A DNA stretch of 20,000 nt, from the NCBI GenBank assembly GCA_008632985.1, contig QPGO01000204.1:113248-133247 (forward strand), in the 5' to 3' direction. Numbering within the stretch: the stretch's first letter is position 1; every line of letters starts with the position of its first letter. The stretch is from Psammoneis japonica. Its lineage: Eukaryota. This document shows, piece after piece, positions 1 to 20,000 of this stretch. Below the pieces are notes generated by a model. It saw nothing but the letters and a program-made list of their open reading frames with translations. It was not told the origin of the DNA and searched no databases. The translations under genes were made by a program, and so were the position numbers.

Positions 1-1050
1 TTGTCTGTTTGTGAGACAACATAGAGCGCACATGTGACGGTTGCGACCATGCGCGACATGTGGCTTGACAACTGCAGACATGTCTGTGGCCAGTCAAATG
101 CCAATCATTGGCATTTCCTGGAAAGATGTGGCTTGTCTGTCTGCCACAACAGCCCAATTTTGGCGGAAAGTGGCGGTTTGTTGCATGTGACAACCAAGGC
201 AAGCACAACAATTGGTGTTTGAAGGTCAATGCGTGTAGTTCACATGAAGGTCTAACAGCCCTGATGGGGGCTGGACACACTCATGTGTTTTTGGGGGTGC
301 TCAGAGGCTTCGCAAAACAACACGGGCAAAGCACAGGGAAATTTGAAAATCACGAGCCATTTAAAAGAACAGCAATGGGAGTGAAAATGCAGAATGAAGT
401 TGGCGTGCGGTTCAAGAAAAAAAGTCAAACACAAATCCCTCTGGCAATGGCATGAGACAAATGATGCGGTTGCAGCCCTGCGAACAGGGTGTGGCAGAAG
501 ATCATGCGATCAGTCGGTCAACGCGCCGCTTTGCAGCAATGCGCACCAGAGATAAAAGGTCAAGGAAAAATTGCACCAGAATGAGATCATTGCTTTCTTT
601 TGGAGAGGATTTAATGCACCCAAACCGCCACAGCAAGGACAATCACGTTAAGTGGAGAATTCAAAGTCAGTGCAACCTCTGAGAGAAAATCTTTGCCTCT
701 GAGGGAGAATCTTGTCTTCAACAAAGACTGACAGAATTTCACAATTGCATGGACCAGAACAACAGCATGCAGTTCACTGCTTGGAACAGTGATCTTGGTG
801 GGCCAGCAAGTGGAAAAGGGAATGTTCAGGACTTGCAAGGATGAAACAGGAAGTTGTGCTGATGTGACAAGAAGGTCGTTGGAAGAAATGTCATTCTCGT
901 GTAGAATTGACACTGAATCTTGCACAGAAAAGCCAATCCACGCAGCAAAAGGACGGTCGTCAGGTGATGCCAATGGTTCACCACAACAGGGACTGTGCTT
1001 TCACCACATGCACAAAGGAGACATGTTAGAAGCCATGCAAAGATAAAGTG

Positions 1051-1156
1051 GTGAGTTTGTGTTATGATTTTGCTCACAGTTGTTGACTCATCTTGAAATC
1101 TGTGTCTCAGATGTTCTCACTGCTTACACCCTCCCGTCTCTTTTGGCCTTCTACAG
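1051..1156 (+). other. Putative intron of a degraded host gene in the left flank
   Basis: GTGAGT donor, pyrimidine-rich 3' end, CTACAG acceptor, 106 bp. Confidence 0.45.
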
Positions 1157-1727
1157 CAACTGGCTTACAATCACCTGCCAGCATGGCAGTTTTTGGTGAT
1201 TGATGAACTGTGCAACAAACATTGGGTGTGTTGCCCTGACCATGGCAACGAACAAGGAGAGCCAGCATTCAATGTGTGGCTGGCTCGATCGAGCCGAGAG
1301 AAAGGATCAACATGTCCAATTGCAGGGTTCTGTTGTGGTGTGCTCAAAACGTCCCAACAAAAGATTCATTTTACAGTGTTGGATGGCCTTGGGAGTCGTT
1401 CATGCCGACAACCGCAATGGCTGCGAAACGATGGAGAGTGCCAGCTCTAGGAACAGCCAGGTCTGCTCTAGAGAGGCGCGCAGCCCATCATGCGGCAGTC
1501 TGTGTCCCGCGCCCCGGTGCGTGCTTGAAGACAATGGACAAAGCATGCCAACAACAACAAAAATGGCGAGAACGAAGAACCATCGATCATCGTTTGTGCG
1601 ATGGCGCACACGCACACACAAGAGCAGCAATTGCACCTGGAGAGCATCTAAAAACAACATTGGAAACATGTGGTAAGTTGACAACGCTCTGACTTTCAGT
1701 GACAATGCCATTTTTGAAGTTGCACCC

Positions 1728-1732
1728 CTCAA
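1728..1732 (+). repeat. Target-site duplication CTCAA (left copy; right copy 9153-9157)
   Basis: Identical 5-mer immediately flanking both LTR ends. Confidence 0.93.
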
Positions 1733-1987
1733 TGTCAATGTTCTGGGTTTCAATCGGAACTCGTGCGCGATCTCATGCGCGTCTCTGCTTCAAGACACAC
1801 ACCAAGACTGGCTCTTGTGTGCTGCAGTTTTTCATTCGATTTTCTCCTCACAATTTCAAGATGACAACAGTGCAACAACACCTTTTTTTTGGTCTCATCA
1901 CCTTGATCTGCCTCTGCCCAGCCAGATCAACCTCTCTTCGACCTCTTCACGTCGAAATCCCAATTGCTCCGTTCCTGAGTCATTGCA
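1733..1987 (+). repeat. 5' LTR (255 bp, contains no TpA)
   Basis: TGTCAA...TTGCA; aligns end to end with 8892-9152 (about 27 substitutions, one 7-bp and one 1-bp indel). Confidence 0.96.
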
Positions 1988-2000
1988 GGTTATGAGCCCA
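1988..2000 (+). other. Primer-binding site complementary to the anticodon arm of initiator tRNA-Met (half-tRNA priming)
   Basis: GGTTATGAGCCCA directly after the 5' LTR, complementary to GGGCUCAUAACC; same type as the Drosophila copia PBS GGTTATGGGCCCAG. Confidence 0.85.
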
Positions 2001-2115
2001 AGTGTCATGCTTGCGACTCTGCCGCATTGCGCCATCGTTTCCTCAAGAAGCGAATTCTCACCCCAGCACATCTAGGTGCATTTCCATGCACCACGTCGAC
2101 ACATTTCAGACGCTC

Positions 2116-2601
2116 ATGACAGAGACGCCATCTCTGGCAATGGACGAACTCATCACTCAACCAAACAACCTTCAGCTTCAGAGTGCTGAACTCCTGCGAC
2201 AAATCGAGGAAGAACGAGAATGGCCAGCCCACAATCCTCCTCCGACTGCCCCTTGAGAAGACACTTCAAGGGGAGAACTCACCACCCAAGACTTTCACGC
2301 AGGAGACCGCGTGTGCATCACGAACGAAATCCGTGGTGTCCGGTTCAGACAAGCAAACGTCCAAGACCGCCAGGCCACAGTCACTCAAATCACTGCCAAA
2401 CACGTCTTCGTACGCACGGACAACGGCAGCACAACAAATTGTCATCCAAAGAACCTTGTTTTCCTTGCCCAATCTCAAGATGACTACGAACGCTGCTCCA
2501 GTCTCTGCTCCCGACTCTGCCAAGACAGGGACGACTCCTCCTCCTTCGGTTGCGCAGACCAAGCTTGGCCAGGCCACTCCAACGACGACCGTCACGATTA
2601 A
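2116..2601 (+). pseudogene. Extra ORF upstream of gag (about 161 codons; N-terminal helix plus putative KOW/SH3-like beta domain), one in-frame TGA
   Basis: Track ORFs 2002-2256 and 2311-2601 share a frame and are split only by TGA 2254-2256 (likely CGA->TGA): MDELITQPNNLQLQSAELLRQIEEE...DFHAGDRVCITNEIRG...ATVTQITAKHVFVRTDNG...PKNL. Confidence 0.6.
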
Positions 2602-4027
2602 CGGCCGCACTGTTCAAGTTCGGAAACAGCCAGAAAACTCACTCTCAGATGACCTCAGCCCTGCACACGAAGAAGCAGAGGGAGACGCTTGCTCCAGACA
2701 AGCTCAACGACATCTTCTCTCATGCCACAGCACCCAAGCAGCAAACCAAATTTGACCTTCTTGACATCAACATCGCCGATCCTGACAAGTCAGAGGACAC
2801 CTGCGACTTCTCCATGTCGATCCAGACCATGCGCGCAAATCACATCAAGTGCAACATGGACGACATTTTCCAGGTCGTCGATCATGTCACCCTCAAGACT
2901 CGCAACTTGCACACCAACTGTTCGACTGTCACCGTTGCTGAAGTCACTGCGAGCAACAAGTGGCACTCCACCATGCTCGACAACCCGATGGCAAGTGGGC
3001 TTCTCAGAATCTGAACCTCACCTGTGATTGCGCCATCAAGCACGCTTCTCCACCTTTGACCAAGAAAGTCAACGAGACTTGCCTGCGTCATTCTAACGAA
3101 GAGCGCGGTGGACCGCTCCACTTCATCATCATGATGAAACTCCTTCAGAGCGACTCTGAAGAAGCCGCACTTTATCTCGTCAAGCTGCTCTCATTGATCA
3201 AAATCACCGATTTTGATGGCAAAGACATCAGCAAGGTTGTCTCGCTCATCCGTGGTGGTGTTTCTCGCCTCGAGAATCTCAAGGACCCCACCGGCAAGAC
3301 TTGCATCCCAACCGATTTTCTTGCTCAGCTGACAAAGGTCTTCCAGACTTCCAGCATGGCCAAATTCAACGGACTCTTTGATCATCTCTCCAAAAAGTCC
3401 AAACTCAAGAAGTTTGTTTCTGTGGCTGCTTCAACTTCTGCTTCTGTGCCTGTCGAATCGATTGCGAACCTCCTTGACATTGCCGAGCGCAAATGTCATG
3501 CTCTGTGCGCACGCGACAAGTGGTCCGGCGTGACCACCAAGGCCAATGCCTCCTCCTTTGTCGCGAGCATCCTCAGCAAGTGCTTTGGTTGCGGCACCGA
3601 AGGATGCTCTGTGGACAAGTGTCCCAAGCCTTGCGATGAAGCTCGCATCAAGGCCAACAAGAAGCTTTGTTTCGACACCAAGCACAACAAGTCCAAAGCC
3701 GCCTCACCGGGCAAGCCTGCCAAACAGCCCCCAGCGAAGTGGAAGCCTCCGACCGACGAGGAACGCAAGAACAAGAATCGCCGTGACATCGACGGCAAGG
3801 ATTGCTTTTGCCATTTCAAGACCAAACGTTGGAAGCCTGTCAGCGCCAACGTCGCTGCGCCGCCTCCTGCATCAGCTCCTCCAGCTCTTCCGACACCTCC
3901 TGCAGCTCCGACACCGGGTGCCGATGCTCGTGTCGCCGCCACTGAGGCAGCAAAGGAGCTCGCCATCGCTGACGCGACTCAGGCCATGCAAGACACCTTC
4001 CGTGGTCTCCTGGGCGCCTTCACTTGA
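2480..4027 (+). pseudogene. gag: gag, frameshifted
   Basis: ATG 2480 (MTTNAAP), frameshifts near 2660 and 2985; zinc-knuckle-like CFGCGTEGCSVDKC, basic/Pro-Ala-rich C-terminus, TGA 4025-4027; lies between PBS and pol. Confidence 0.8.
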
Positions 4028-4989
4028 CTTCCCGGGCGCGCCACTGCCCTGCTCCCCACTTGGCACACAGCCCACCCTCAACCACCCGATCCTGGAAGGG
4101 ACACCCAGGTTTGGCTCCATTGTTTGTGTCTGTGGTTTGTTGTTTCGTTTCTTCAAGAGGGTGATTTCGGACATTGCGTGCCATCTGACTGTTTTCAGCT
4201 GTTGTCTCCAGCAGTCATGGGATTGTCTTTCACATGCTGTTCTTTGCAAAGAAACCCACAATGCTGCACTTCTCCAAGCAACCTGCACACGCTGACTTCA
4301 TCTTCGAGCCAACCCCACAACCTGCTTCACCAACTCCAAATCGCCGACTGCCTCGAGCGAAGCAGCATCCACTGCATTTGTGTCATGCGGCGTCCTGTCC
4401 TGCATCCAACAAGGACTCCTCCAGTCTGTCTCTGGAAACCCTGGACTTGGACGTTCAAGCGCAGGACTCCAGCTCCTCCTCGAAATCTGGATCCCGAACC
4501 AGACAATCCCTCAAGACGTCTCACATTGCGCCATCGCCGACACTCAAGACGCTACAAGCGCCCAAGAGGGCACTGCTCCAATCGCTCCTGTCGGAACCCT
4601 CAATGTGAAAACCAGATCTTCATGCAAGGATTCAAACAACTGGTCCTCTGAACCAGATGACAATCCTGGCAACAAAGAATTCGCCCGCATTCGTCATCGA
4701 TTGCTCCATCAATCATGGATCATGCATGATCTACAATTTGGCATCAATCTGGACTCTTTTGTCAAGTCCATTGACCCACTGCGACAGCTCTGTTGCTGGA
4801 GAATCTTGACTGCTCCTGAAGTCCTCGAATCCATCAACAATCGCGATCCGTTTTGCTGTCTCACCACCACCTTGAGCAACAACGAGCGCCAAATTGTCAC
4901 CTCACCTCAGTTTGGTGGAATTGCCATGTTTTCAAAACAGGCAAAACACATTCAGACCGCTGGAACACCAAGGAAGAAAGAACATTTTC

Positions 4990-7900
4990 AAGCTTGCCTT
5001 TCTTCCACAAAAACGGACACTCCAATCATCCCAGATGCCGGCGCTTCATCCTCTTTAACCCCGCACATCTCACCAACTTCATTGGACCTCTTGAACCAGC
5101 TTCGCATGCCGAGATCAAGGGCCTTGCATCCAGTGCCCGCGTTGTTGGAAAAGGCACCGTCAAATGGGACATTGTCGACTGCTGGAACGTCACTCGCACC
5201 GTTCGGACAACTGCCTGTCACGTCCCTGACTGCTCAATCAGACTCTTCAGTCCTCAAACCCATTTCCAAGAGAATGAGAACAATGGATGCTGCCACATCT
5301 GTGGCAACAAGTCCATCCTCGAGCTGGCAAATGGCAACAAACTTGAGTTCCCCTGCAATGCTGGGAATGACTTGCCTCTCATGCTCACTGCTCATCCTTT
5401 CAAAGGCGGCATTGACTCCTGTCATGTTGCCCCACTTTTGGATTCTAACTGTTCATTTTTGTCAGTTGCTGCTCAGACAAATCAGAACATGACACCAGCT
5501 CAAAAGGAGCTCCTTCTCCTTCACCAGAAATTCGGACATGCTGGATTCCAGTGGATCCAATGCCTTTGCAAGATTCCCTGGAGTGAACAGCACAGCCAAG
5601 TGCTCAAGCCGCGAAACCCAACAACCAATTCATGCGATGCACCTCTCTGTGCAGCTTGCCAACTGGCAAAGCAACAACGACGCAATCCCGACCATCGCAG
5701 CACATCCAAACCTCAAGAAATGACCCTTCGTTCCAAGGATCTTTGCCCCGGACAAGGTGTCTCCATTGACCAGTGCATCAGCCATCTCCCTGGCTGCTTG
5801 CCCAAGTCAAAAGGAAAGGAAGCCCCAAGAACAAGTGCAATGGCGGCACACTTTTTGTCGACCATGCATCGGGCTACGTCCATGTCAACCATCAAGTTGG
5901 ACTCACTGCTGGCGAGATGCTTCATGCCAAGCAACGCTTTGAACAGCACTGCAACACCTTTGGAGTCCAGGTGCAGCACTGCCATGCTGACAACGCATCC
6001 TTCGGTTCCAAGGCATTCCAAAGTCACATCAATGACAACGGGCAGAAACTCACCTTTTCTGGCGTTGGAGCTCATCATCAAAATGGGGTTTCCGAGCGTG
6101 CACACAAACCATGACCTCATGGGGTCGAGCTCTGTTGCTCACGCCATCCTCATGTGGCCTGATCAAGCCAATCTCGAACTGTGGCCTTTCGCCATGGAAC
6201 ACGCCGCTTGCATTTGGAATCATTTGCCCCGTCAAGATTCCCGACTTGCTCCTGTCGAGATTTTCTCCGGCCAACGCTTGTGTGGGGTTGTCCCGCGTAC
6301 GTTCTCGACCCGAAACTACAAGACAACAAAAAGATCCCAAAGTGGAACGCACGATCTTGTCGTGGACAGCATCTGGGCGTCTCCTCAGATCACTCCATTG
6401 GCATCGGACGGATCCTGAATCCAAACACCGGTTTCACAAGTCCACAGCATCACGTGGTCCATGATGACCATTTTGCTTCAGTCCCAAATGCTGATTCCGG
6501 CGGCATCTTTCACAATGCTCCGTTTGACGCTGGATCCTTCTGACAATCCAAGACACGGCCAACCATGCCTCCACGATCATTGGTTGACTGCGCGCGAACG
6601 TGCGCATCGCAACTGCCACCGCCAGTGACAAAAAGCCAACAAATCCGCTGCCAAGAATGCCCAACCCGCCACCCAGGACATTTCTGACTCCTCTTCTGTC
6701 TCTGCTCCAGAGGAGTGACAACACCAAAACATCAAACTGACGATGATGCAGTGGACGTGGGAGCATTCACTCCAGAGGGAGCCAAACCTCCAGAGGAAGA
6801 GACAGACTCTCTGCCTCCACCGGAACCACCGGATGACAACGAGTTGTCTCTTGTGGATCATTTTGATCTGCCAGACGACGATGATGCCGTCGCAAGCAAC
6901 AACACGCCACAGCCATCACCTCCACTGCAAGATGTGCAACCACGACGACCACTCAGAGTGGCCGCACAAGTGGAAACCGTCACGTTTTATCAAATCGATG
7001 ATGGCTCACATGTCCTTCCCAAACACTGAGTCTCCACAAGCTCACAAGAACCCGAAACGGACGGTCAAGGCTGAATCCTCTGAACCAGCAATTCTTGATG
7101 TCCTTGCAATGGGAAAAGATCACTCACACTCTCCAATCTCGTGACCTCAGTGCAATGTTCAACATTCTGCGTGCCAATGCCGACATTGACCACAACACAG
7201 TTGAAGAATTTCACCCTTTGGCCTTCGCAGCAAAGGCAAACTCGGGGCTGACAACCCTGCTTGGGACCAAGCAATGAACGGACCAGACCGTGCAGCCCAT
7301 TTGAAGGCTTGCGACGTCAAACTGGATGCTTTGGCAAAAGGCAAAGACGCTTGGGATGTTGTGGATTGTGAAGATTGGATGAACGTCCTGCCATCTGCTT
7401 GGGCGTTCAAATGCAAACGATTTCCAGACAGTCGCATCAAGAAACACAAGGCTCGATTTTGTGTTCATGGCAACAAGCACTCGAAGGCATCGACCACTTT
7501 GACACCTTTGCTCCAGTGGCAAATTGGACAACTGTGCACCTCATGCTCATTCTGTCTCAAATCTTGCAACTCTCTACAAAACAGGTCGACTGTGTTACGG
7601 CTTTCGTACATGCTCCGATCGACAAGGACCCCGACTTCGACAAGTTGTCGCCAGAGGAACAAGCTCGTTCCGGCGTCTACGTTGAAATGCCTCGTGGCTT
7701 TGCGGAACCTGGGAAAGTCCCAAAGCTCAAGAAATCCGTCTGTGGACTCAAACAAGCACCGCGAAACTTCTTTTTGCACCTCAAGTCCAAACTAGAAGGT
7801 GCCGGATTCACCGCTCAAGACGACGTCGATCCGTGCCTCTTCATCTCGGACAAAGTCATCTGTCCAGTCTACGTCGATGACACCCTCTTCTTCTCTCCCA

Positions 7901-8864
7901 AGCAAGAGCACATCGATGAAGTCATTGAAAAGATTCGCCTTTCTGGACTCGCCATCGAAGAAGAAGACTCAGTCGCGGGATTTCTCGGCGTGCACGTCAA
8001 GCGCGACACCGATTCAGGTGCTGTCAAGCTCACCCAGAGCGGCCTGGCCCGCCGTGTCGTGGAAGCCCTGAACATGCCTCATCTCCCAAAGAAATGTGCA
8101 CCAGCAACTGCCACTCCACTCATTCAAGATGCCGACGGCGACCCTCCTGCAGGCGCCTGTGACCATGCAAGCGTCATTGGCATGTTGCAGCATCTCGCCG
8201 GCCACTCTCGGCCGGACATCTCGTGTGCAGTGAGTTCCGCTGCCCGCTTTGTTCACTCACCTGAACGCTCGCACGAAATTGCTTTAGAGCGGATTGGACA
8301 ATGTCTCAAAGGGACCCTCGACGAAGGTCTCATTTTGCGCCCAACCGGAAATCTCGATGTCGACGCACACGTCGATTCTGACTTCGCCGGTCTGTGGCCA
8401 CACGAAGACAAGCAAGACCCTGCGTGTGTCAAGAGCCGCTCATTTGTGTCTCCAACTGTCCCATCATCTGGACAAGTAAACTCGCTCCCGAAATCGCACT
8501 CTTGACGATGGAAGCCAAGCACAACGCTCTGTCCTTCTGTGTGAAGAGCGTTCTTCCGTTTCAACGCGCCGTGTGCTGCATCTCTGAGTGCACCGGCATT
8601 GGCACCTGCATGTCTGCCACCTTCAAGACTGCTGTCTGGGAGGACAATGCCGGAGCTCTGACTCTCGCGAACATGGAACCTGGTCGGATCACTCCGCGAT
8701 CCAAGCACTGTGCTGTCAAGTGCCGCTGGCTCCGGTCCCATCTCAAGCCCAACGATGTCACTGTCCAGAAGATCTCTACCGATCTGCAAAGGGCAGATTG
8801 CCTAACCAAAGGGCTTACAAGGGACGCATTCGAGTCCATTCGCAAACTACTCTGTGGATGGTAA
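4990..8864 (+). pseudogene. pol: pol (protease, integrase, reverse transcriptase, RNase H), multiply frameshifted
   Basis: PR IIPDAGAS (~5025-5050); HHCC LHQKFGH...CAACQLAK; IN core SIDQ/ADN/HHQNGVSERA, WGCPAYVL; RT KARFCV, FAPV, GLKQAPR, VYVDD (7867-7881), SRPDI; RH DSDFAG, WEDNAGA, QRADCLTK; stop 8862-8864. Confidence 0.95.
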
Positions 8865-8882
8865 TTGATCTCTCACTCGTTC

Positions 8883-8891
8883 GAGAGGGAG
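8883..8891 (+). other. Polypurine tract
   Basis: GAGAGGGAG immediately before the 3' LTR. Confidence 0.88.
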
Positions 8892-9152
8892 TGTCAACAT
8901 TCCGGGTTTCAATCCGAACTCGTGCGCGATCTCGCGCGTATCTCTACTTCAAGATACACATCAAGACTATCTCTTACGTACTACAGTTTTTCATTCGATT
9001 TTCTCCTCACAATTCACAATTTCAAGATAATAACAGTGTAACAACACCTTTTTTCAGTCTTATCACCTTGATCTGCCTCTACCTAGCCAGATCAACCTCT
9101 CTTCGACCTCTTCACGTCGAAATCCCAATTGCTCCGTTCCTGAGTTATCGCA
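8892..9152 (+). repeat. 3' LTR (261 bp, 14 TpA)
   Basis: TGTCAA...TCGCA, preceded by the PPT and followed by TSD CTCAA. Confidence 0.96.
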
Positions 9153-9859
9153 CTCAACATGCTTTCATCGGTTGCTGCTGCAGACGAATTCTGGCGACGC
9201 TTCCAAAGGTCCTGCATCGAATTTGCGTCTCCTCTACCAGCTGCCACAGTCAATCACGGGTATGTTTTGCAGTTCCAATGGAGAATTCGCTGCTGCTTGT
9301 CAAGTAGTAACGCCGTCACCAACATTGGTACCGTCGGCGGCAACCAGCAGTAGCCTGTATGGCTCTGCTTGTCTTGTCATGCGGGTTTATGCCATTGCAA
9401 CGAGTTTGTTCATGGTCTTTACTACAATGGTTTGAACCATTGCTAACGAGCGGAGCAGGATTGGGGAAAAACTAATGGTCAATTTCTCAAAGTATTGAAA
9501 GGGGACGTGAAGAGGGATCGAGACGCAGACACATGAACAGGCGGTTTCAGAGCAGTTAAATTTGTTTGTTCGATTGCAATGGCGGCCAAAAATACACGAG
9601 GCCCGAAAGGAACGTTCAAAGACGAAATCGAGGGGAAAAAGGGTGCCGTAGTAGCCTCGATGATGCACGAATGTCTACCACAAACAGCTGGACTCGAAGG
9701 CAGCATGGTTAAGTATCATATATGGAGAAAATTGTGTCATGCTTCTCTACTGGCACCGGTAATTTGGATAATGCTCAATCCGAGTAAGAAAATGGCGATG
9801 AATTCGACGAGAGCTTGCCAAGAATATTCCCCTCTCCAAGTTTGAATGGAAGTTACGTT

Positions 9860-10708
9860 ATGTGGCGAAGAAGGGAACTGCTTTCGGTCGACTCTTTTGC
9901 TTTACTTTAAGATACCGTACGACACCAGTGACGAGCATTGTCTGAATCGAATGGTGATGATGTAATGTACGGGTGTTTCTCGCACGTCCCGTGGCGAGAA
10001 TAATCCATACTTAAACTGTAAGCTTGGTCTCAAATATGGGAATCTCAGTTTGGGTATGAGAAAGTTTGCAAAATGCAGGCCTCAGCGAGAAAAGGGAAAA
10101 GGCTGGGGGCTCGTTGCCGTCAACGGTGCAGAATGGGGTGAGCTCATTCAGGAGTACACTGGTTAAGTTATCGACGAAGAAAGAACGAAGAAACGCCTTG
10201 AAGCATGGGCTAGAGACCGTCCAAACGACGCCATTTTCTACGTGATGTATCTTGACACCGGCTGGTACATTGATGCGAGCAATGAGGCCAACAGAGTTGA
10301 TTCGTTAATCATTCGTTTGATCCAACCTGCAAACTGGTCCGAGTCAATGTTGGAGGGTACTTGCACGTTGCCATCAAATCCTGTATGAACATTGTTCCTG
10401 GAGAATTTCTGATTTACGACTACCAGTTTGATACAAGGGATATTTACAAGTTTCTCTGTAGATGCGGTGCTGCTAAACGTCAAGGCACCTTGGTGGGAAA
10501 GGAGTTCCAAGATTGTGCCGAGCAGAAAACAAAGGGACAGGAATGAGGAGGTGCGAGGGTACGCTTGTACCGCGACAAGACATTTCTTGAGGACCTTAAG
10601 AGACACGCAGCACACAGACGTTTGCATGTTTCAGATCTTGTGCCGTGTACTACCAAGACGAGACCGTTGCGAGTGGACCGCAAGATTGCGATCGAGAGTT
10701 TGCAGTGA
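9860..10708 (+). pseudogene. AWS-SET-postSET histone lysine methyltransferase (Set2/NSD/ASH1-like, H3K36 class) pseudogene
   Basis: CLNRMVMM*CT...GKGWGLVA...ELIQEYTG*VID...FYVMYLDTGWYIDA...FVNHSFDPTC...GEFLIYDYQF...FLCRCGAAK; TAA at 9963-9965 and 10164-10166, frameshift ~10295, TGA 10544-10546. Confidence 0.9.
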
Positions 10709-11008
10709 AAAGCAGGCTGTTCTTGTGTCGTAATGTCGTTCTGGGGGCTGACTTCTCGGCAAGGTGCTTATCACTGGAGAAAGCTTGCAAAAAGTCTTGA
10801 TATACATGAAACAATGAAGCGATAGGCATCTTTTCTCTCTTCGAAAGGGCGTCTTAGTGGAGGTTCTTGTGAACACTCCCTGTACCGAGTGTTTTGTACA
10901 TTCAGAAAAGTTGAATGTGCTCTGTATCCTTATCTTCTACATACTGGTGGCGCGATTGGAGGTGACGCTGCTTCTTGGGATGGTACAGTAGTGATAGATA
11001 CCTGGAGT

Positions 11009-11228
11009 GGCGGCGGCGGTTGCGGCGTACCATAACGAAGAAGAAGTTGGGATGGACCTGCTGCTGCTAACCTTGGACCTTCTGCTGCTAACCTTGGACC
11101 TACGAAAGTAATATAGTAATTTGTGGTGATGCTTGGCGGCGGCGGCGGAGCATAACGAAGAAGAGGAATTTGGGATGGACCTGCTGCTGCTAACTTTGGA
11201 TCTACGAAAGTAATTGGTGGTGATGCTT
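11009..11228. repeat. Imperfect tandem repeat (about 126 + 94 bp units, internal 21-bp duplication); also in copy 2 (~14494-14713)
   Basis: GGCGGCGGCGG...CATAACGAAGAAGA...GGGATGGACCTGCTGCTGCTAAC...TACGAAAGTAAT...GTGGTGATGCTT occurs twice. Confidence 0.85.
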
Positions 11229-11730
11229 ATGGGCCACGAAGCATTGCAGAGCATAATAGACCTGGACCAAGAATACACGGTGACGACACGTACGGCCCTG
11301 CTTCTCTAGCATTCTAGGAACCCCTGTGGATACCCGAGATGGTCTGGACACGTATTGAGCATGGGCCTGGACCTTACGCACGCCGAAGTGTTGGGAACAC
11401 GTACGGACCCGGGCGTGGAATGAGTGCAGATCGATTTCGCCTCCTAGACTAAGTGAGGTGATTCGTACGGACCATCACAGCCACACGCACCTCGTGTCCT
11501 ACCACACACTCATACGGTTTGGTGTAAGGTATGCTCTCTAGAACAAAAATCCCGAGCTTACTGCCGCTGCTCGCTCTTGCGATCGCAGCTTCTCTTGCAT
11601 TATGTGGTACTCGTACAGAAGGGCGAGTAGCGATACCACAGAATTCAAAATCACCTTGCTACCTGTCTCTATTTTAGCAAATTACAAAAATAGTATAAGT
11701 ACAAGTGCTACAAGTGCCGCACATTTTGAC

Positions 11731-11850
11731 TTTCCCGAATATTGCATGTCGTATTTCCTGAATAATGCATGTCGTATTTTCCGAATACTACATCTTGCAT
11801 TCCCAAAGGTTTTTCGTTGCATTCCCCGAACATTGCACGGTGCATTCCCC
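11731..11850. repeat. Degenerate ~23-bp tandem array (about 5 units); also at ~15224-15343
   Basis: TTTCCCGAATATTGCATGTCGTA / TTTCCTGAATAATGCATGTCGTA / TTTTCCGAATACTACATCTTGCA / TTCCCAAAGGTTTTTCGTTGCA / TTCCCCGAACATTGCACGGTGCA. Confidence 0.75.
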
Positions 11851-13474
11851 TTTCCCAAACACATCACATGGTCATTGTTGCTCATGATGCCCGAGCCTCC
11901 CTGGCTGCCACCCATGACATGGACAACATTGTTGAGCACCTGCAGGTAAAGTGCATCCGTCGCCTTGGTCCTGTCGCAACCACCTGATCGACTCAGAATG
12001 CCAAGAAATTATAGAGGAGGGGTTGTTCAAGGAATTAGAGAGCCCGTCTATGTAACAAAGGAAGCTGCTATGGGCAATACAAGGAAACAAAAGAGCAATT
12101 CAAGGACGTGAGGACCCGCAAGCATGTGGACTCAGACTTCTGTGAATCTTGCACCTGTAGCCAAATCGATGCAAAGCACAGTTGCACCCCTCGTTTGTAA
12201 CTCAAAGGGGCTTTATCGAGTCCCTCATACCATCATAATCGAAATGTAACTATGACCAGTAGAGAACAGATGTTGATGCGAGTGTTTTCTCGGCATGCTG
12301 GGGTTTGCCAGTTCAATCTGTCGTGGCATGTTGCCTCTCCTCGAGGTCGTGGCATGTAGCTCCTAGTCGCAATTAACCATTAACAGCACTAGACTATATT
12401 ACTTTGTCAAATTACTCATTGATAAACCCATTCTCACCATTGCAGCAATGATTTCTAGCGCTTGGAGCCTTGCAGAGAGAACCACCTGCACACACCAAGT
12501 TCCGGATCAATCCTGCTTTCGGGCCTCAATGTCACTAATTGTGTTTGTTGACTTTTGACATTGCTTATATTCAATGCACTCCTATGTGTTAGATGCTTCC
12601 TGGACTATTGTAAAGTATTCAATCTATATTGATAACGAACTACGCATCTTTCCGTGCATGCAAAACGATGGAAACAGGTGTCCGACAAAAGGGTTCCGGC
12701 CAGCTATCGTCATTTACCTGTCGCTGGCAGCATTTTCTACAGTTTGATCCCGATCTTAGAAACATTGACCGTTTAAAAACGCCTCTTTGCAGACAATATG
12801 AACAATTTAAGCCGTGCTCCGAATCGATTTGGTTGGAGCTAGCACGTTCGTGGGATCCGAGGTGGAACTGCTTGAGGCTCCTCAGAAACTCGCATGGACT
12901 TTTGACACCTGATAACCACCCAGGATCGTCTCACTTAGTCATATAGGGAGGCGTTTGAGCCATTAATTGAAACTTTTGGATGGTTTAACACAGGCATTGA
13001 GTCGATTTGATTGTCGCAAATGATCGTGACAAGCAAGAATTGCCGCGCTTGCTTTTGTTTTTGACACGGAAAACACTGCCAAAGAAAGAGCTTATCCCTT
13101 TAAAAGTCATCTTTATCGAGTATATCGTCCATGACATGGGTACCTACATAATGCATTACATTTTAGACCTCCAAAACATTTGCTGTCGTGCCGGATGCAG
13201 AGGAAACAAAGAAATTGAGTGAAAAGTTCAGATGATGATCAAAGGCATTGAATGAAGATAACATGCTTTATTACCCATACCTTATGATCATAATGAGGTT
13301 TAAACATACTCTCCAGGTGATTCTTACACTTGGTGTTAAATATTGCCGCCGCCGCAACCGATCCCATGGTCGACTTCAGTTGCGTCGCGTGTCGCGTTTT
13401 GGAAAGAAGAAGTTGATTTTATGGGTTATGAGCGTTTTAGTCGAAACGCGCGGACGTGGCCCAAAAGCATCGTG

Positions 13475-13529
13475 ATTGTCCCATAATTGTCCCATAATTG
13501 TCCCATAATTGTCCCACAATTGTCCCACA
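13475..13529. repeat. 11-bp minisatellite x5
   Basis: (ATTGTCCCATA)3(ATTGTCCCACA)2. Confidence 0.95.
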
Positions 13530-13665
13530 CCCTCCATGCCGAATGCCGACACGCCGACACCGAGATAAAGAGTAATTTGAGAAATGCCCAAGTCACGACC
13601 ACAACGAGGATTCAAAGGTCAGGTGAGCCAATCATACCACTCAACCCTTGTTCCTGCCAACAAAA

Positions 13666-14194
13666 AAAGAACGAAGAAACGCCTTGAAGCATGGGCTAGA
13701 GACCGTCCAAACGACGCCATTTTCTACGTGATGTATCTTGACACCGGCTGGTACATTGATGCGAGCAATGAGGCCAACAGAGTTGATTCGTTAATCATTC
13801 GTTTGATCCAACCTGCAAACTGGTCCGAGTCAATGTTGGAGGGTACTTGCACGTTGCCATCAAATCCTGTATGAACATTGTTCCTGGAGAATTTCTGATT
13901 TACGACTACCAGTTTGATACAAGGGATATTTACAAGTTTCTCTGTAGATGCGGTGCTGCTAAACGTCAAGGCACCTTGGTGGGAAAGGAGTTCCAAGATT
14001 GTGCCGAGCAGAAAACAAAGGGACAGGAACGAGGAGGTGCGAGGGTACGCTTGTACCGCGACAAGACATTTCTTGAGGACCTTAAGAGACACGCAGCACA
14101 CAGACATTTGCATGTTTCAGATCTTGTGCCGTGTACTACCAAGACGAGACCGTTGCGAGTGGACCGCAAGATTGCGATCGAGAGTTTGCAGTGA
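13666..14194 (+). pseudogene. Duplicated C-terminal fragment of the SET-postSET pseudogene
   Basis: FYVMYLDTGWYIDA..., GEFLIYDYQF...CRCGA; same frameshift as copy 1, but CGA where copy 1 has TGA. Confidence 0.85.
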
Positions 14195-15357
14195 AAAGCA
14201 GGCTGTTCTTGTGTCGTAATGTCGTTCTGGGGGCTGACTTCTCGGCAAGGTGCTTATCACTGGAGAAAGCTTGCAAAAAGTCTTGATATACATGAAACAA
14301 TGAAGCGATAGGCATCTTTTCTCTCTTCGAAAGGCGTCTTAGTGGAGGTTCTTGTGAACACTCCCTGTACCGAGTGTTTTGTACATTCAGAAAAGTTGAA
14401 TGTGCTCTGTATCCTTATCTTCTACATACTGGTGGCGCGATTGGAGGTGACGCTGCTTCTTGGGATGGTACAGTAGTGATAGATACCTGGAGTGGCGGCG
14501 GCGGTTGCGGCGTACCATAACGAAGAAGAAGTTGGGATGGACCTGCTGCTGCTAACCTTGGACCTTCTGCTGCTAACCTTGGACCTACGAAAGTAATATA
14601 GTAATTTGTGGTGATGCTTGGCGGCGGCGGCGGAGCATAACGAAGAAGAGGAATTTGGGATGGACCTGCTGCTGCTAACTTTGGATCTACGAAAGTAATT
14701 GGTGGTGATGCTTATGGGCCACGAAGCATTGCAGAGCATAATAGACCTGGACCAAGAATACACGGTGACGACACGTACGGCCCTGCTTCTCTAGCATTCT
14801 AGGAACCCCTGTGGATACCCGAGATGGTCTGGACACGTATTGAGCATGGGCCTGGACCTTACGCACACCGAAATGTTGGGAACACGTAGGGCCCTACGGA
14901 CCCGGGCGTGGAATGAGTGCAGATCGATTTCGCCTCCTAGACTAAGTGAGGTGATTCGTACGGACCATCACAGCCACACGCACCTCGTGTCCTACCACAC
15001 ACTCATACGGTTTGGTGTAAGGTATGCTCTCTAGAACAAAAATCCCGAGCTTACTGCCACTGCTCGCTCTTGCGATCGCAGCTTCTCTTGCATTATGTGG
15101 TACTCGTACAGAAGGGCGAGTAGCGATACCACAGAATTCAAAATCACCTTGCTACCTGTCTCTATTTTAGCAAATTACAAAAATAGTATAAGTACAAGTG
15201 CTACAAGTGCCGCACATTTTGACTTTCCCGAATATTGCATGTCGTATTTCCTGAATAATGCATGTCGTATTTTCCGAATACTACATCTTGCATTCCCAAA
15301 GGTTTTTCGTTGCATTCCCCGAACATTGCACGGTGCATTCCCCTTTCCCAAACACAT
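13666..15357 (+). repeat. Direct segmental duplication, copy 2 (1692 bp)
   Basis: Matches 10180-11864 (offset 3486 to 3493). Confidence 0.97.
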
Positions 15358-15383
15358 TGAGGACGAGTCGTATCGATTCGAAA

Positions 15384-16552
15384 TCAAGGCAAAGGGAGTC
15401 CGGCCTTCTTGCGTTGGGAACGAGTCATACGGGCCGGAGTCTCGGCAGCCTTCTTGCGCGGGGTCTCGAACGCAGTATCACCTGCAACAGTGACCTTCTT
15501 CTCGGGGGTGACATCGGTGCTGGGCTCTGGGGTAGTAGCGCCATTCGCCACATTTTCCTTGGCCGCGGTGGCGCCGCTGTCCTTCTTGCTCCAGCTCATA
15601 CGACGAGGCCACCAAGAGCCGCCATTGGCAGTTCCGTCCTTGTTGGCAACGTTGGTTCCTTCCGAGACGGCAGCGACGGTAGACGTCTTCTCCTTCTTTT
15701 TCTCCTTCTTATCTACTTTGAGTTGAAGAAGCCCGCTGGCAACAGAGAAACAGAATCGACGTTGTGAGCACAACAAAGGACAATGGACTGTGGAGGCTGG
15801 CATGGCACTTACAGCTCTTCAGTGATCACCGCCTCTTTCTTTTTTGTCTGTAGACTTTCCATCCGAGCTTCAATGAGATCTTTCTCTGCGGCCTTTTCAT
15901 CCCTGATGAGGCTGACATGCAAGTCGGTCCCCTTCTGGGCTTGTGCCGCAAAGACAGACGCAGAGTCGAGGTGCTTCTGCTCATTTTCCACGAGCTTCTC
16001 GCGCAGCTCTTTGTTTTCCTTCGCATTTTGCACGGAGACTTTAGCCATCTCTCGCATCAAATCATTGTTGGCCTTGAGCTCTGGTTTCGCGTCTTTCCGA
16101 CGACCGACCGCGTTGAGGTTGGCCTCGATCAAGAGAGCTTCCGTCTGCTTCTGCAACTCAGCCTCCGTGGCAAGTCTATCCTTCTTGAGCTTCATTTTCG
16201 CAAGCTTGGTGTCGGTGTCGTCGGAGGCTGCACTCTCCGGGGTACCATCAGCATCATGGTTGGTGGCAGCTATGGCGGCCGCCTTGGGCCCCGGCGTGAC
16301 GACCTTGGCGGGAAGAGAAGGCATGCACTTGTCACGAGCAACCTTCCAGCGGGGCTTGCTCTTGGATAGCCATCTTCCCACCTTCGCTTCCTCGCCCGGA
16401 AATTCATCGTGGAGCTCAGGAATCATCGCATACAATTCCGACGCTGGGAAGCCGGGCACGAAGATGTAATCCAACTCTCCACGAATGGCGGGATCGACCA
16501 CTAACCTGCGCATCGTAGGGTTCTTAGAGTATTTACAGGATGAAGTACTCAT
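15384..16552 (-). CDS. Two-exon hypothetical protein, about 363 aa, central coiled coil and Lys-rich C-terminus; join(16552-15813, 15735-15384)
   Basis: ATG 16552 (MSTSSCKY); 77-bp intron 15812-15736 with GTAAGT donor and CCAG acceptor joins ORFs 15809-16648 and 15384-15803 in frame (EEL|GLLQLKV); 1092 nt, no internal stop. Confidence 0.82.
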
Positions 16553-16699
16553 CTTGGAGATAGATACAGTGATCGTAGTCGTAGGAACCGAAAGAGCAGG
16601 GACCGAAAGAGCAACAACGTTTGATACGCCGCAACAATGACAGGTCATCGAGGACTCGTTTTCGATCGTTCCATCTCCCGAGCGCCGGCCTCGGCGACG

Positions 16700-16930
16700 T
16701 TATTTTTGAACAGAATATGAAGAAATATTAATGAAGTGAGTATAATGATATGGAAATCAAGCTGGCCGGATGATTTATATATTAGTCCCTTTCGGTTGTA
16801 TATGGATTTTGAATTATTTGTAAACCTTCATGGTACAAGGATTGAAAAATAACATTATCTATGGACTCTAAGGTAGTTTAATTATGAATATTGCAGTAAA
16901 GCTTCCTATAAGAAATCACGTAGGTAGACA
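16700..16930. promoter_or_regulatory. AT-rich intergenic region between divergent genes (possible bidirectional promoter)
   Basis: AT/TA-rich stretch between ATG 16552 (-) and ATG 17042 (+); position-based inference only. Confidence 0.35.
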
Positions 16931-17041
16931 AGCTACTCAGATACACGCATCGATCGAGAACGGCACGACTATCAACGGAAAAAACAAATATTGGAACCTG
17001 CGCGCGACACGCCCCATGCATCCCATCCGAATCCATTCACA

Positions 17042-17570
17042 ATGTCACTTCTGGAAGTGCTGCGACGACGGAAAATGACGACGACACCCGGCGCTGTGCC
17101 TCCTCAGATCCTATCTGCGTTGGAGGAGCTTCGCACACCCTCGAGCTACTTCAATTCAGAAGAAGCAGCAGCCGATCTTGTCTTGTTCTGCGCATGTGAG
17201 GACGAAATCTCTCAGTCGCTCACCGAAGCCGGATTTCTTGAGACAATCATTGGTGCAATGGATCACGATGGGCAAAGCAACTCCTTTTGCTTGTGTGTCA
17301 TTCATGTGCTCAGCAAATTTGTGCAGTCAAAGGAGGACAATGCAGAAGAAATCCTTGGAAAGAAAGGCGGTCTCAAAAGAACAGTTTGTCTGATGGACAC
17401 ATTTGAGGAGAGAGTCTGACAAAGACATTCAAATGCTGGGAGTTTTGTGCCTCTTTCATCTCACAAAAGAAACCAGAGGAAAAAGCATGGTTGAAATGGT
17501 GGCAAGCATCATGGAGTGCATTGCCACAGCCACAGAAACTCACAAAGACCCTGTCTTGATTGCTGGTTTT
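17042..17570 (+). pseudogene. Armadillo/ARM-like helical-repeat protein, decaying toward its 3' end
   Basis: MSLLEVLRRRK...EAGFLETIIGAMDH...VIHVLSKFV...GGLKRTVCLMDTF, frameshift ~17410, then SDKDIQMLGVLCLFHL; ARM-like GG/AG-hydrophobic helix pattern. Confidence 0.55.
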
Positions 17571-20000
17571 GGTCTTTGTTTTTGTTTTTGTTTCATGATC
17601 ATTGCTTCAATGCTTCGGTGCAAAAGACATCTTGAGTTTTGCCTCTTGAGCCACCCACTTGATGTTGAGGTTTCTGCAAAGAACTGCTTGTGCTGTGGCT
17701 GGTTGAAAGGTTGCCCACACTCTTGTGGCTCACAGCTTGAGGCATGATGGAGTCAGCAGTTCTCTGTGCTTGACCTTTGCCCATCAGACTCGCTGTCACA
17801 ATGTGCCTTCTCCTGTTGACACCATTGTCTCCATCAAAGTCCAGAGTCCAGACTGCCCCAGCCATTGGCAAAACAGGAGCTTCTGTGGAACTTTTCTGCC
17901 TGCTTCACTGCCACAAAGCAGCTCTTGGCAACAATGCCACCCCCACATCATGCCTGGCTGCAGCAAAGGACTGTCTTCCAAGCTGCCATCTGAGATGCCC
18001 AACTTGGGTTTGTGCTGAACTCTTCACTCTTCCCGTCACAAAAACAAGGTGTTTCTGGTTCTGATGGCAATGTGCTGGAGCCTTCCTGCACAGCTTCCCA
18101 GGTGCACACCAGTGCCTCCAGAGTGCCAGCCCAGCCACAACAGCTGCACCATCTTTGCTGGGGCTTTGCCAGCAGGTCGCTGTGCCAAGGCTGCCACAGT
18201 CTTGGACAACAGCAAGTCAAAGCCGATGCAGCCATGACAGTGCTTTGTGGTGCCATCAGCATGGAGTGGTGTGAGCTTGCTGGACTGCCCGACCCTGCAT
18301 GCCACATCCCCTTGCAGTTGAGTGCCAACCTGAGAGACACAGTCATGAAGAATCCCTGCCCAAGCCAAAGCTGGAGCTGGCATGTGAGCCCCTGTTGGCA
18401 CCCCATGCTGCACTGCTGCAAAATGGCACAAGCTTCCTGAAGCTTGCTTGTGTTGGTGCTGCTGCCATGGGCCAACTTGTCAACACACCACTCTGCCCCC
18501 CAACACAAGCAAGATGGTGCGCACTTTTCTGCAGCTCTGGCTGGGATGACAGATGTGCACTCCAAGCAAACTGCAGTGCATGCTCCCAAACAACAGCCCG
18601 TTGAAGGTGCTTCTCATGTCTCTGGCTGATGCCAGCCTGTGGTTGGCTGTCAAAAAAGCAGGGGTCAAGAAGGACAGATCATCAGCTGCAGGAGAGCATG
18701 AGTTCCCTGCCATGTGCTCAGCAACAAGGCACTGGCACATTGGAAGCACCACAGTTGTGTGGGTGTGGGTGGGGGGGCATGACACCACTTGCAAGTGTGG
18801 CTGCTCAGGTCAAGTGACCCACCTGAGACATGTGCGCATCCACAAACGGCTGGGAAATGCTGCTGGCAAGAAGGGCCTCTTGGAGGTGCAGCCACCCTTG
18901 GTCACAAAGAAGCTTGCAAAACTCTGGCTCTGGCTGTGTGTTTAAAAAGTGAAAAAGCTTTGAGTGAAGTTTGGTTTGAGAGTCATCAAGCATGCAAATG
19001 ACAGCTGCTTCCTGCACAGCAGACTGCTGCCTCTCATTTTTTCTCAAGAGCTTGCTCAGAATGCAGGGTCCAAAGCAAGCAGTCAAGCTGGCAAGTGTTT
19101 TCTTCTCCCCAGCCCTGTGCAAATGCAATGGCACAACTTGAACAGCCAAACTGTGCTGCCAGAGGAGCACACGTGGAGTTGGCAGCTGGCCTGGGGCTGC
19201 CAAGCTGGCAAGGTGCTCCGCTTGGTGGCGCACAGCACACTCAGTTGCTCTCACATTGTCACCCTGCAGCTGCACCATGCACACCCACCCTTTGAACCAG
19301 CAGCAACCACCCCAGTCAGTGAAGAAGATGCCAACAAATCTCTGGCCCTGCTTCTGTGGTTGATTTTGTGTGCGTTCTCAATGGCTTCAATCCCCTCCTT
19401 TTTCCTTCTTCCTTTTTCCCTTTGGTCTGGCCAGGAACATGAAAAAATTGCCAACAAAATTTGAACCATTCACAATTTTTGGCATGCAAACAAATGTGTC
19501 TTCAGAGCTGATGGTGACAAGAGGTGCTCACAATGAGACCCAATGGAGCAAGACAGATGCTCTGGTGCAAAAGCTTAAAAGATGATGGATCATTTCATGC
19601 AAGGCAAAAAGTCATCAGACATTGCAAGATGTTTGCAGCAGTGCTTGTGGTGGCAACTTTTGGTGGGTGGGTGTGCTTTGATGCTGCTTTTCAGTCTGGG
19701 GTTGGCTCTTGTCATCCTCTGGTCCAGCAGCTGCAGCTGCACATTGTCCCACACACAAGAAAGTCTTTCATGCTGAAGTGCTGCCAGCACAAGAAGCAGG
19801 TCTGACCGTCTGCAAGCACACAAAAAATCAAGCCCAGCTGCTGGCTGCCCGCCCCTCTCATCATCCAAGCAGACAAGGCATGAGGCTCTGTGTTTGGCAT
19901 CTCTTTTTGCCACCTTTCAAGAAGCCAGTGCCAGCATTGCACACATGTTGGAACACTCCGTTGGTTCTTTCAGGCACCAAGAAATGCCCATCATCTCCAG
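17150..20000. other. TpA- and CpG-depleted, TG/CA-rich hypermutated domain; original identity unrecognisable beyond ~17570
   Basis: Only 2 TA dinucleotides (18943, 19576) in about 2850 bp; under 20 CG in 17400-20000 by manual count. Confidence 0.9.

Follow-up and report, generated by a model that had tools for sequence, protein, structure and literature searches.

In repeat-induced point mutation (RIP), known from Neurospora and other fungi, CpA is converted to TpA, which enriches TpA; the transitions arise in double-stranded DNA after integration, inactivate transposons and can leak into adjacent sequence. ADAR and APOBEC3 enzymes act on RNA or cDNA with a strand bias and leave the two long terminal repeats (LTRs) of a retroelement alike, APOBEC activity giving C to T or G to A changes. 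The closest system to the one considered here has been described in the chlorarachniophyte Bigelowiella natans, in whose mutation-accumulation lines 231 of 302 nuclear mutations fell in two regions of integrated viral DNA (Mettrop et al., bioRxiv 10.64898/2026.01.13.699255). All but one of the viral-region mutations were A to G or T to C, and these all lay at TpA. According to the abstract, Results and Discussion of that preprint, there are also 124 clusters poor in TpA and rich in CpA and TpG, TpA-poor genes are enriched in reverse transcriptase (RT) and DDE domains, the region derived from a giant virus (nucleocytoplasmic large DNA virus, NCLDV) is single-copy and silent, the hypermutation is ongoing de novo in only some lines, and an ADAT2 homologue has been proposed as the agent (bioRxiv 10.64898/2026.01.13.699255). 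Here, a comparable pattern is described in a 20,000-nt stretch of Psammoneis japonica DNA (contig QPGO01000204.1 of assembly GCA_008632985.1, positions 113,248 to 133,247 of the forward strand), referred to below as the window. Most of a Ty1/copia LTR retrotransposon in this window, together with the DNA to its left, has lost almost all of its TpA. The change runs from TpA to TpG or CpA, is restricted to TpA, falls on both strands alike, is later than the insertion, approaches saturation and stops abruptly at a point inside the element. It is probably the work of a putative adenine deaminase that is directed to silent chromatin and mutates whole chromosome domains after integration.

Direction, strand and timing of TpA loss

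TpA content was expressed as the ratio of observed to expected TA dinucleotides (o/e), and significance was taken from mononucleotide shuffles and from Poisson probabilities against the window's own baseline o/e. Positions 1-1732 hold 19 TA (o/e 0.16) and positions 1733-8770 hold 23 (o/e 0.06), with none at all in the 5' LTR (1733-1987; o/e 0.00); five are found in 8777-8864 and 14 in the 3' LTR (8892-9152). A preliminary description of the locus had given exactly these four counts and had spoken of normal density up to about 17150, in agreement with the o/e of 0.679 over 8777-17147; beyond, in 17148-20000, the ratio is 0.012. Poisson P for the depletion is 1e-11 in 1-978 (o/e 0.12), 9e-6 in 979-1732 (o/e 0.23), 1e-5 in the 5' LTR and 2.5e-77 in 1988-8722 (o/e 0.062), and the 42 TA of positions 1-8776 compare with a mean of 507 and a minimum of 463 in 200 mononucleotide shuffles. 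The TpA-depleted parts show an excess of CpA and TpG (o/e 1.4-1.9), the raw CA and TG counts being 185 and 177 in 1-1732 and 323 and 328 in 17150-20000, the latter pair representing the products in a second mutated domain.

The direction of the change is given by the LTR pair, between whose members there are 27 substitutions and two indels. Each of the 14 TA in the 3' LTR is changed in the 5' LTR, to TG in seven cases, to CA in six and to CG in one, and TA sites account for 15 of the 27 substitutions. Five more substitutions are CpG in the 3' LTR and TG or CA in the 5' LTR, with none in the reverse direction; another four make up two sites, aligned with 8898-8899 and 9055-9056, at which the 5' LTR reads TG and the 3' LTR reads CA; and three are of other kinds. 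For the TG/CA sites, an ancestral TA hit on both sides is the simplest reading of the sequence, and the 3' LTR may in that case carry two hits out of 16. Conversion in the pair thus amounts to 14-16 of 16 sites in the 5' LTR and to 0-2 of 16 in the 3' LTR. Since the LTRs of an element are identical at integration and these now differ at 14 of 14 TA sites, the change is later than the integration. At 1780-1781, the CG of the 5' LTR faces TA at 8939-8940, i.e., both bases of one TpA step are altered. Because TG or CA no longer offers a TpA context for a second hit, this one site, with CG for TA, is a hint that the two adenines of a step, one on each strand, might occasionally be hit together.

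In the interior of the element, sites were polarised codon by codon up to 8722, wherever TA is present in half or more of 18-33 TA-normal relatives; the loci L049 and L023 were excluded as depleted. With a DNA identity of no more than about 65-73%, the 79 related metagenome loci are too distant for nucleotide outgroups and were compared at the level of codons only. At 17 interior sites with TA in the relatives, the window reads CA eight times, TG six times, TA twice and another dinucleotide once. Among 531 conserved protein columns, 112 differ from the relatives; a single-step reversion accounts for TA>TG in 14 of them, TA>CA in six, CG>CA in 11 and CG>TG in five, and the remainder are about 16 other transitions, about 32 transversions and 28 columns needing more than one step. 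Conserved Tyr has become Cys at six sites and His at four. Over the non-overlapping polarised sites of LTRs and interior together, the products are 13 TG, 14 CA and one CG; both strands are hit equally. By arithmetic from composition counts, about 260 conversions are estimated for the 7-kb interior, or about 92% of its original TA. Strand-coordinated runs of TG or CA, counted by hand over 18 ordered sites, number seven against about nine expected, which is not significant. At 7548-7549, three contigs of other copies read TG and the window reads CA, which on sequence grounds indicates that one ancestral TA was hit independently in separate copies. Four TA survive within the 104 bp of 7575-7678, one of them in a conserved Tyr codon.

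Two trivial causes of TA loss were considered. Selection or codon bias against TA was rejected, the non-coding LTR sites being converted in 14 of 14 cases. A base-calling artefact is unlikely: contigs of public run X1, the only run found to contain the window, match 2193-2680, 2733-3286, 5655-6202 and 17265-19280 with no other letters, although X1 may be the sample behind the assembly. Figures for X1 contigs here and below come from the best-supported matches listed.

Editing before integration, either of RNA from A to I by an ADAR- or ADAT-type enzyme or of cDNA, with fixation by reverse transcription, is scarcely credible as the source. ADAR and the ADAT-dependent mRNA editing of fungi typically prefer a 5' U, as is also stated in the Discussion of the B. 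natans preprint (bioRxiv 10.64898/2026.01.13.699255), and to this extent such editing would suit the target. Reverse transcription would, however, equalise the LTRs, yet these differ at all their TA sites; the products are strand-symmetric; and flanking DNA and a domain outside the element are affected as well. The preliminary description had held that mutation acted on double-stranded DNA after integration, with TG and CA products about equal, and that RNA or cDNA editing was excluded. The timing is borne out by the one-directional TA differences of the LTRs, the double-stranded action and the equality of products by the near-identical numbers of TG and CA at polarised sites, and the exclusion of editing by LTR asymmetry and strand symmetry taken together.

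Edges and extent of the mutated domains

The right edge of the first mutated domain lies in the coding sequence of pol. Polarised conversions end with Tyr to Cys changes at 8709 and 8721; TA reappears at 8777, none lying between 8477 and 8777; and after 8730 there is no difference from the conserved residues of the relatives. A likelihood change point for TA is placed at 8777 (support interval 8735-8803). Conversion switches from about 100% to about 0-12% within at most 55 bp (8722-8777), at a position that precedes the 3' LTR by 115-170 bp and the end of the element by about 375-430 bp. Homology to pol in frame 3 is unbroken from 8439 to 8861, where it ends exactly at the C-terminus of the relatives with a stop at 8862-8864, so that the edge is crossed by an uninterrupted coding sequence. 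Unequal recombination between two different insertions is excluded by the perfect CTCAA duplication around the element. An edge this sharp and inside the element favours a positional signal, of the chromatin type, over recognition of sequence or copy number. Scans for tRNA genes and Rfam families gave no match, and hence no tRNA-type barrier, at the edges at 8777 and 17148. A sharp end near 8775 had been proposed in the preliminary description and is confirmed, and the change-point detection that it had called for added a second domain from 17148. Its statement that the 3' LTR was spared holds for the normal TpA content and the 14 TA, but the two CA-versus-TG sites indicate that the sparing is perhaps not complete.

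The edge might have been produced secondarily, if the whole copia element and the older repeat on its left were hypermutated by a process bounded by elements or repeats, and an unmutated paralogue or allele later replaced the last ~400 bp (8777-9152) through gene conversion or mitotic recombination. Such an event is rather unlikely. An unmutated right flank would fit a tract ending at the end of the element, the family has further copies (depth 90-210, with differing letters at 7548/7549), and a lightly mutated donor could have brought in the two TG-versus-CA sites of the LTR. No conserved residue differs after 8730, against five differences outside the TA and CpG types in 8439-8730, but this contrast (0 of 43 versus 5 of 97 differing codons) is not significant (estimated P about 0.1-0.2). 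Overwriting moreover requires an extra event, with an arbitrary left end and a right end that coincides with that of the element; a strictly element-bounded process does not predict the depletion of the spacer at 979-1732; and the second domain begins in low-copy, gene-like sequence without a recognisable element end.

An assembly chimera, in which a hypermutated copy or haplotype (up to about 8750) was joined to an unmutated one of the same family (from about 8777), is highly improbable. The family does have several copies, the exact-match contig depth of 34-37 in mutated parts against 81 at 15765-16247 would fit haplotype-specific sequence, and none of the contig matches listed bridges 8750 (there are 1339 more). 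The CTCAA duplication, however, is identical on both sides, the frame and homology of pol cross the junction without an indel, and a second sharp edge, at 17148, sits in unrelated sequence. Even a chimera would still require hypermutated and unmutated versions of one insertion at one site.

The second domain provides an edge outside the element. Its TA edge is at 17148 (support 16990-17205) and its CpG edge at 17267 (support 17231-17297), and it starts about 100 bp into an open reading frame (ORF; 17042-17416) that the protein Atlas likens to ARM/HEAT-type proteins, a lead only. A 2016-bp contig matches 17265-19280 exactly. Neither in 17148-20000 nor in the spacer at 979-1732 was any mobile-element feature recognised by Pfam and ORF scans. 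Upstream of the start of this domain and across it, 21 TA in 190 bp (16801-16989) are followed by 30 CpG between 16919 and 17368, and the arrangement over 16801-17266 looks promoter-like in its sequence.

On the left side, the mutated domain reaches beyond the element. The measure used here is the summed depth of public-run contigs, which is not a copy number, and statements on the flank are provisional. Summed depth is 2550 in the bin 1-667, 1480 in 668-1334 and 129 in 1335-2001, compared with about 34-37 for exact-match contigs in the mutated parts; over 1-1334 it is thus 40-70 times that of the exact-match contigs. Among the matches listed, nine contigs diverge after 978, and other copies of 1-1334 read TA at 79, 285, 318, 332 and 654, and CG at 328, 335 and 1169, where the window has CA or TG; one further difference is a transversion. 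Judging from these comparisons, the first ~1 kb seems to be a separate multi-copy repeat, itself converted, rather than host DNA invaded from the copia element. The earlier claim that the domain enters the left flank consequently stands for the depleted spacer (o/e 0.23), and less clearly for 1-978, which is apparently another repeat. The depletion of the lower-copy spacer and the position of the right edge within the element both speak for a process that follows a domain and not the element. In the depleted flank, 1027-1166 forms an island of normal TA content (6 TA in 140 bp, scan-statistic P 0.012) and overlaps sequence resembling a short GT...AG intron; the island might reflect local protection, a conversion tract or sequence inserted later.

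Regarding copy number, summed depth is high in 1-978, which is mutated, and in 12007-13340 (950-2150), which is unmutated; it is low in the mutated 17148-20000 and in the unmutated 9153-10173. Since depth and mutation combine in all four ways, mutation is not set by copy number alone, contig depth being an imperfect stand-in for the latter. The repeat at 12007-13340, common by depth, is unmutated though only 3 kb from a mutated domain. The depth of X1 contigs is 34-37 in the mutated domains (2193-6202, 17265-19280) and 81 in unmutated DNA at 15765-16247; contig depth is a poor measure, and the contrast is a hint that the mutated domains might be haplotype-specific (diverged or hemizygous) in a diploid. 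Another run, X2, whose kind is guessed to be DNA, is blank over 2002-8671 and 17343-20000 and covers parts of 9339-17342; nothing is inferred from it.

The copia element, its surroundings and CpG decay

The element at 1733-9152 is a Ty1/copia LTR retrotransposon, with LTR ends of the TG...CA type, a 5-bp duplication, a polypurine tract and an integrase placed before RVT_2 (Table 1). Among 25 ORFs of the window searched with Pfam, RVT_2 was found in ORF 7372-8505 (E 4e-22) and, weakly, gag_pre-integrs in ORF 4820-6418 (E 3.7e-4, below Pfam's cutoff); beyond these two copia domains, only one chance-level match was obtained. Full-length relatives found by HMMER align by tblastn in the order integrase, RT and C-terminus, across frame changes at ~5065, 5820-6280, 7560 and 8440. 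With its coding sequence broken by several frameshifts, the element is, by its sequence, dead. Among the 120 RT matches listed, the closest named relatives are diatom proteins (Seminavis, Cylindrotheca and Nitzschia, 55-58%), relatives from assemblies without names reach 70% identity, and no B. natans protein is named; by this measure a diatom or other ochrophyte is a likelier host than B. natans. The Atlas gave no usable taxonomy for the RT, a cluster look-up of 10 homologues returned no names, and an exact 40-nt word of the LTR had no match in metagenome contigs. The erasure of TAA and TAG opens long, meaningless ORFs in all frames. TGA is the sole stop codon left in 1-8776 and 17148-20000, where long ORFs are found in six frames with translations rich in Cys, His, Gln and Trp.

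Table 1. Coordinates of the features of the window.
Feature	Positions	Strand	Properties	Basis
Apparent multi-copy repeat	1..978		8 TA, o/e 0.12; CpG o/e 0.53; runs off left window end	Depth
Lower-copy spacer, partly TpA-depleted	979..1732		11 TA, o/e 0.23	Poisson P 9e-6
Left target-site duplication	1728..1732	+	CTCAA, identical to 9153-9157	Direct reading
5' LTR, fully converted	1733..1987	+	TG...CA ends; 0 TA	86.6% identity to 3' LTR
Ty1/copia internal region, frameshifted gag-pol	1988..8722	+	23 TA, o/e 0.062	Pfam, tblastn
Right edge of mutated domain, in pol C-terminal coding sequence	8723..8777			Polarised sites, change point
Unmutated internal 3' end	8777..8891	+	Last pol codons; TAA 8862-8864; polypurine tract GAGAGGGAG 8883-8891	5 TA, o/e 0.69
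3' LTR	8892..9152	+	14 TA, o/e 0.66; 15 CpG	LTR alignment, dinucleotide counts
Right target-site duplication	9153..9157	+	CTCAA	Sequence reading
TpA-normal stretch	9158..17147		o/e 0.68; CpG o/e 0.95	Dinucleotide counts
Second mutated domain, low-copy by depth	17148..20000		2 TA in 2853 bp; CpG o/e 0.135; runs off right window end	

CpG is reduced on the mutated side too. In the 5' LTR, 5 of 15 CpG are lost, against 0 of 15 in the 3' LTR (Fisher p=0.042), and CpG o/e is 0.53-0.80 in the first domain, 0.135 in the second and 0.95 outside. The unmutated stretch contains a direct duplication of 1.7 kb (10174-11864 and 13660-15357, 1.8 kb apart) with 99% identity, whose copies differ by seven transitions, five of them at CpG and none of the TA type, and by two small indels. 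The possibility that this duplication represents the LTRs of a young element was rejected, as it is without TG...CA ends. For the ORF at 15809-16699 on the minus strand, no homologue was found at E<=0.01.

Mechanism and comparison with known systems

A mechanism can be proposed in which, after insertion of the copia element, a locally confined process would turn nearly every TpA into TpG or CpA (A:T to G:C, on either strand). The first mutated domain spans the older repeat (1-978), the spacer (979-1732), the 5' LTR and ~6.7 kb of the element's interior and ends at 8722-8777; from there to the second domain, which starts at 17148, the final ~375 bp of the element and the DNA on its right are untouched. 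The agent would be an adenine deaminase that acts on DNA and requires a 5' T, with inosine as the likely product, copied as G. The tRNA target of ADAT2/TadA-type enzymes, A34, follows U33, which amounts to a native requirement for 5' U or T, and an ADAT2/TadA-like enzyme would thus fit the TpA specificity. Targeting would depend on heritable silent, CpG-methylated chromatin rather than on the sequence or the copy number of the element, and hits would presumably build up over many generations, as measured for the B. natans signature. From the counts given in the parts of the preprint named above, a rate of about 1e-5 per TpA per generation was computed here. Such a rate would saturate TpA within a few hundred thousand generations, far below what the ~1.2% background divergence of the LTRs implies.

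The same geometry could also arise from another chemistry, in which the thymine of TpA is modified or oxidised in silent chromatin (5-hydroxymethyl- or 5-formyl-uracil type, by a TET/JBP-like oxygenase) and miscopied as C; this is judged improbable. TA is palindromic, so that each change is also a T to C change on one of the strands, and it bears on this route that 5-formyluracil miscodes and that 5-hydroxymethyluracil is enriched at TpA in dinoflagellates. Against it, there is no evidence of such bases here or in the sections of the B. natans preprint named above, adenine deamination is the sole published proposal, and the 5' U/T requirement is native to ADAT/TadA substrates. Moreover, A-to-I and C-to-U activity on DNA has been reported for amphioxus ADAT2, according to the part of that report considered (PMC10354150), and deamination of both A and C would be in keeping with the loss of CpG from the mutated side as well.

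Several points weigh against domain-wide adenine deamination guided by silent chromatin. TA is self-complementary, A to G is inseparable from T to C, and adenine deamination and a thymine modification are not distinguished by the changes themselves. The right edge could be secondary, via conversion of the 3' end, and, the first kb of the left flank apparently being another repeat, most of that flank could have been targeted in its own right. A motif common to both edges was sought, and none stood above shuffled controls. The TA and CpG edges of the second domain are ~120 bp apart. CpG transitions make up five of the seven in the unmutated 1.7-kb duplication as well, and the link between CpG and the domains rests on a small count. 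The context of the surviving TA shows only a weak trend, namely a deficit of ATA/TAT (ATA in 3 of 42 in 1-8776 versus 102 of 386 outside). Finally, the chromatin-like character that the preliminary description had given the domain is hinted at solely by the extra CpG decay on the mutated side.

The signature of TpA loss recurs in related elements. In 242 homologous proteins covering at least five of seven conserved Tyr columns, the median protein keeps all Tyr, and five of them have His or Cys in place of Tyr, the Tyr columns kept being 0 of 7 in P0028, 0 of 5 in P0206, 1 of 7 in P0076, 1 of 7 in P0132 and 2 of 5 in P0136. P0028 has no Tyr in 555 amino acids; P0132 has six Cys and no His at its Tyr columns, a possible strand bias. 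Of the 79 related metagenome loci, two are TpA-depleted. L049 has no TA in 3085 bp and His or Cys at 7 of 7 Tyr columns, and L023 (1-1693) has a TpA o/e of 0.21, the other 77 ranging from 0.45 to 0.89. The presence of the signature in unrelated public assemblies suggests that the process is widespread in marine protists. It is tentatively conceivable, though doubtful at present, that a heritable DNA editor guided by chromatin domains erases TpA and, more slowly, CpG from silenced DNA outside Rhizaria too, probably in diatoms and in the uncultured organisms of L049 and P0028, with edges of nucleosome scale (within 55 bp) that are independent of transposon termini and copy number and stay fixed while ~260 sites are rewritten. 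If true, this would amount to an ancient and widespread eukaryotic genome defence by base editing of chromosomal DNA, and the locus would serve as an assay for how boundaries are set. The LTR pair acts as a built-in clock and control for a change that is chromosomal, post-integration, two-stranded and carried to saturation, and the two defined boundaries make the guide and the stop of the mutator directly testable. There is also a practical side, because the erasure of TpA removes the stops TAA and TAG and every Tyr codon from a domain, and the resulting false long ORFs and His/Cys-rich "proteins" are a trap for annotators.

Among known systems, RIP resembles the process seen here in being a heritable, post-integration, dinucleotide-specific transition hypermutation of double-stranded DNA. 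The direction, however, is opposite, as TpA is at o/e 0.06 and CpA/TpG at 1.4-1.9 here and the LTR pair shows TA to be ancestral. RIP is also limited to duplicated sequence, whereas summed contig depth (not a copy number) does not track mutation in this window, and the viral target of B. natans is described in the preprint as single-copy, unlike the duplicated targets of RIP. ADAR and APOBEC3 share with it the inactivation of retroelements by deaminases and, in the case of ADAR, a 5' U preference, but here the LTRs are unlike and the strands balanced. The decay of CpG in transposons and repeats carrying 5-methylcytosine is comparable to the CpG to TpG/CpA change in the mutated domains (5 of 15 in the 5' LTR; o/e 0.135 in the second domain); it leaves TpA loss unexplained, and the TpA and CpG edges of the second domain are ~120 bp apart. 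For ADAT2/ADAT3, the likeness lies in a target adenine that follows U or T, and a capacity to deaminate A and C, as indicated by what was considered of the amphioxus report, would fit the joint loss of TpA and CpG. To our knowledge, no ADAT has been shown to act on chromatin-defined domains of double-stranded DNA.

The greatest likeness is with B. natans, again as far as the abstract, Results and Discussion of the preprint extend. In both cases A:T changes to G:C only at TpA, giving TpG or CpA in both orientations, and the change is confined to multi-kb regions with a very large contrast to neighbouring DNA, although only the accumulated pattern is seen here. The hypermutable region of B. natans reaches about 21 kb past the annotated viral insert, which is similar to the spread beyond the element in the window. 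On the other hand, the target is viral there, and here it is a Ty1/copia element with a neighbouring repeat, spacer and gene-like DNA; Rho is 0.45 in the viral region, as against a near-saturated o/e of 0.01-0.06 here; and only the present locus offers timing by an LTR pair, an intra-element edge defined to 55 bp or less and a CpG decay that falls on the mutated side. LTRs, copia elements and boundaries are not mentioned in those three parts of the preprint (bioRxiv 10.64898/2026.01.13.699255), and full-text searches of the literature gave no second report of TpA-specific hypermutation of integrated DNA and none for diatoms. The phenomenon is of a kind described once, in this 2026 preprint on one chlorarachniophyte, and the present locus is an unusually informative new case of it.

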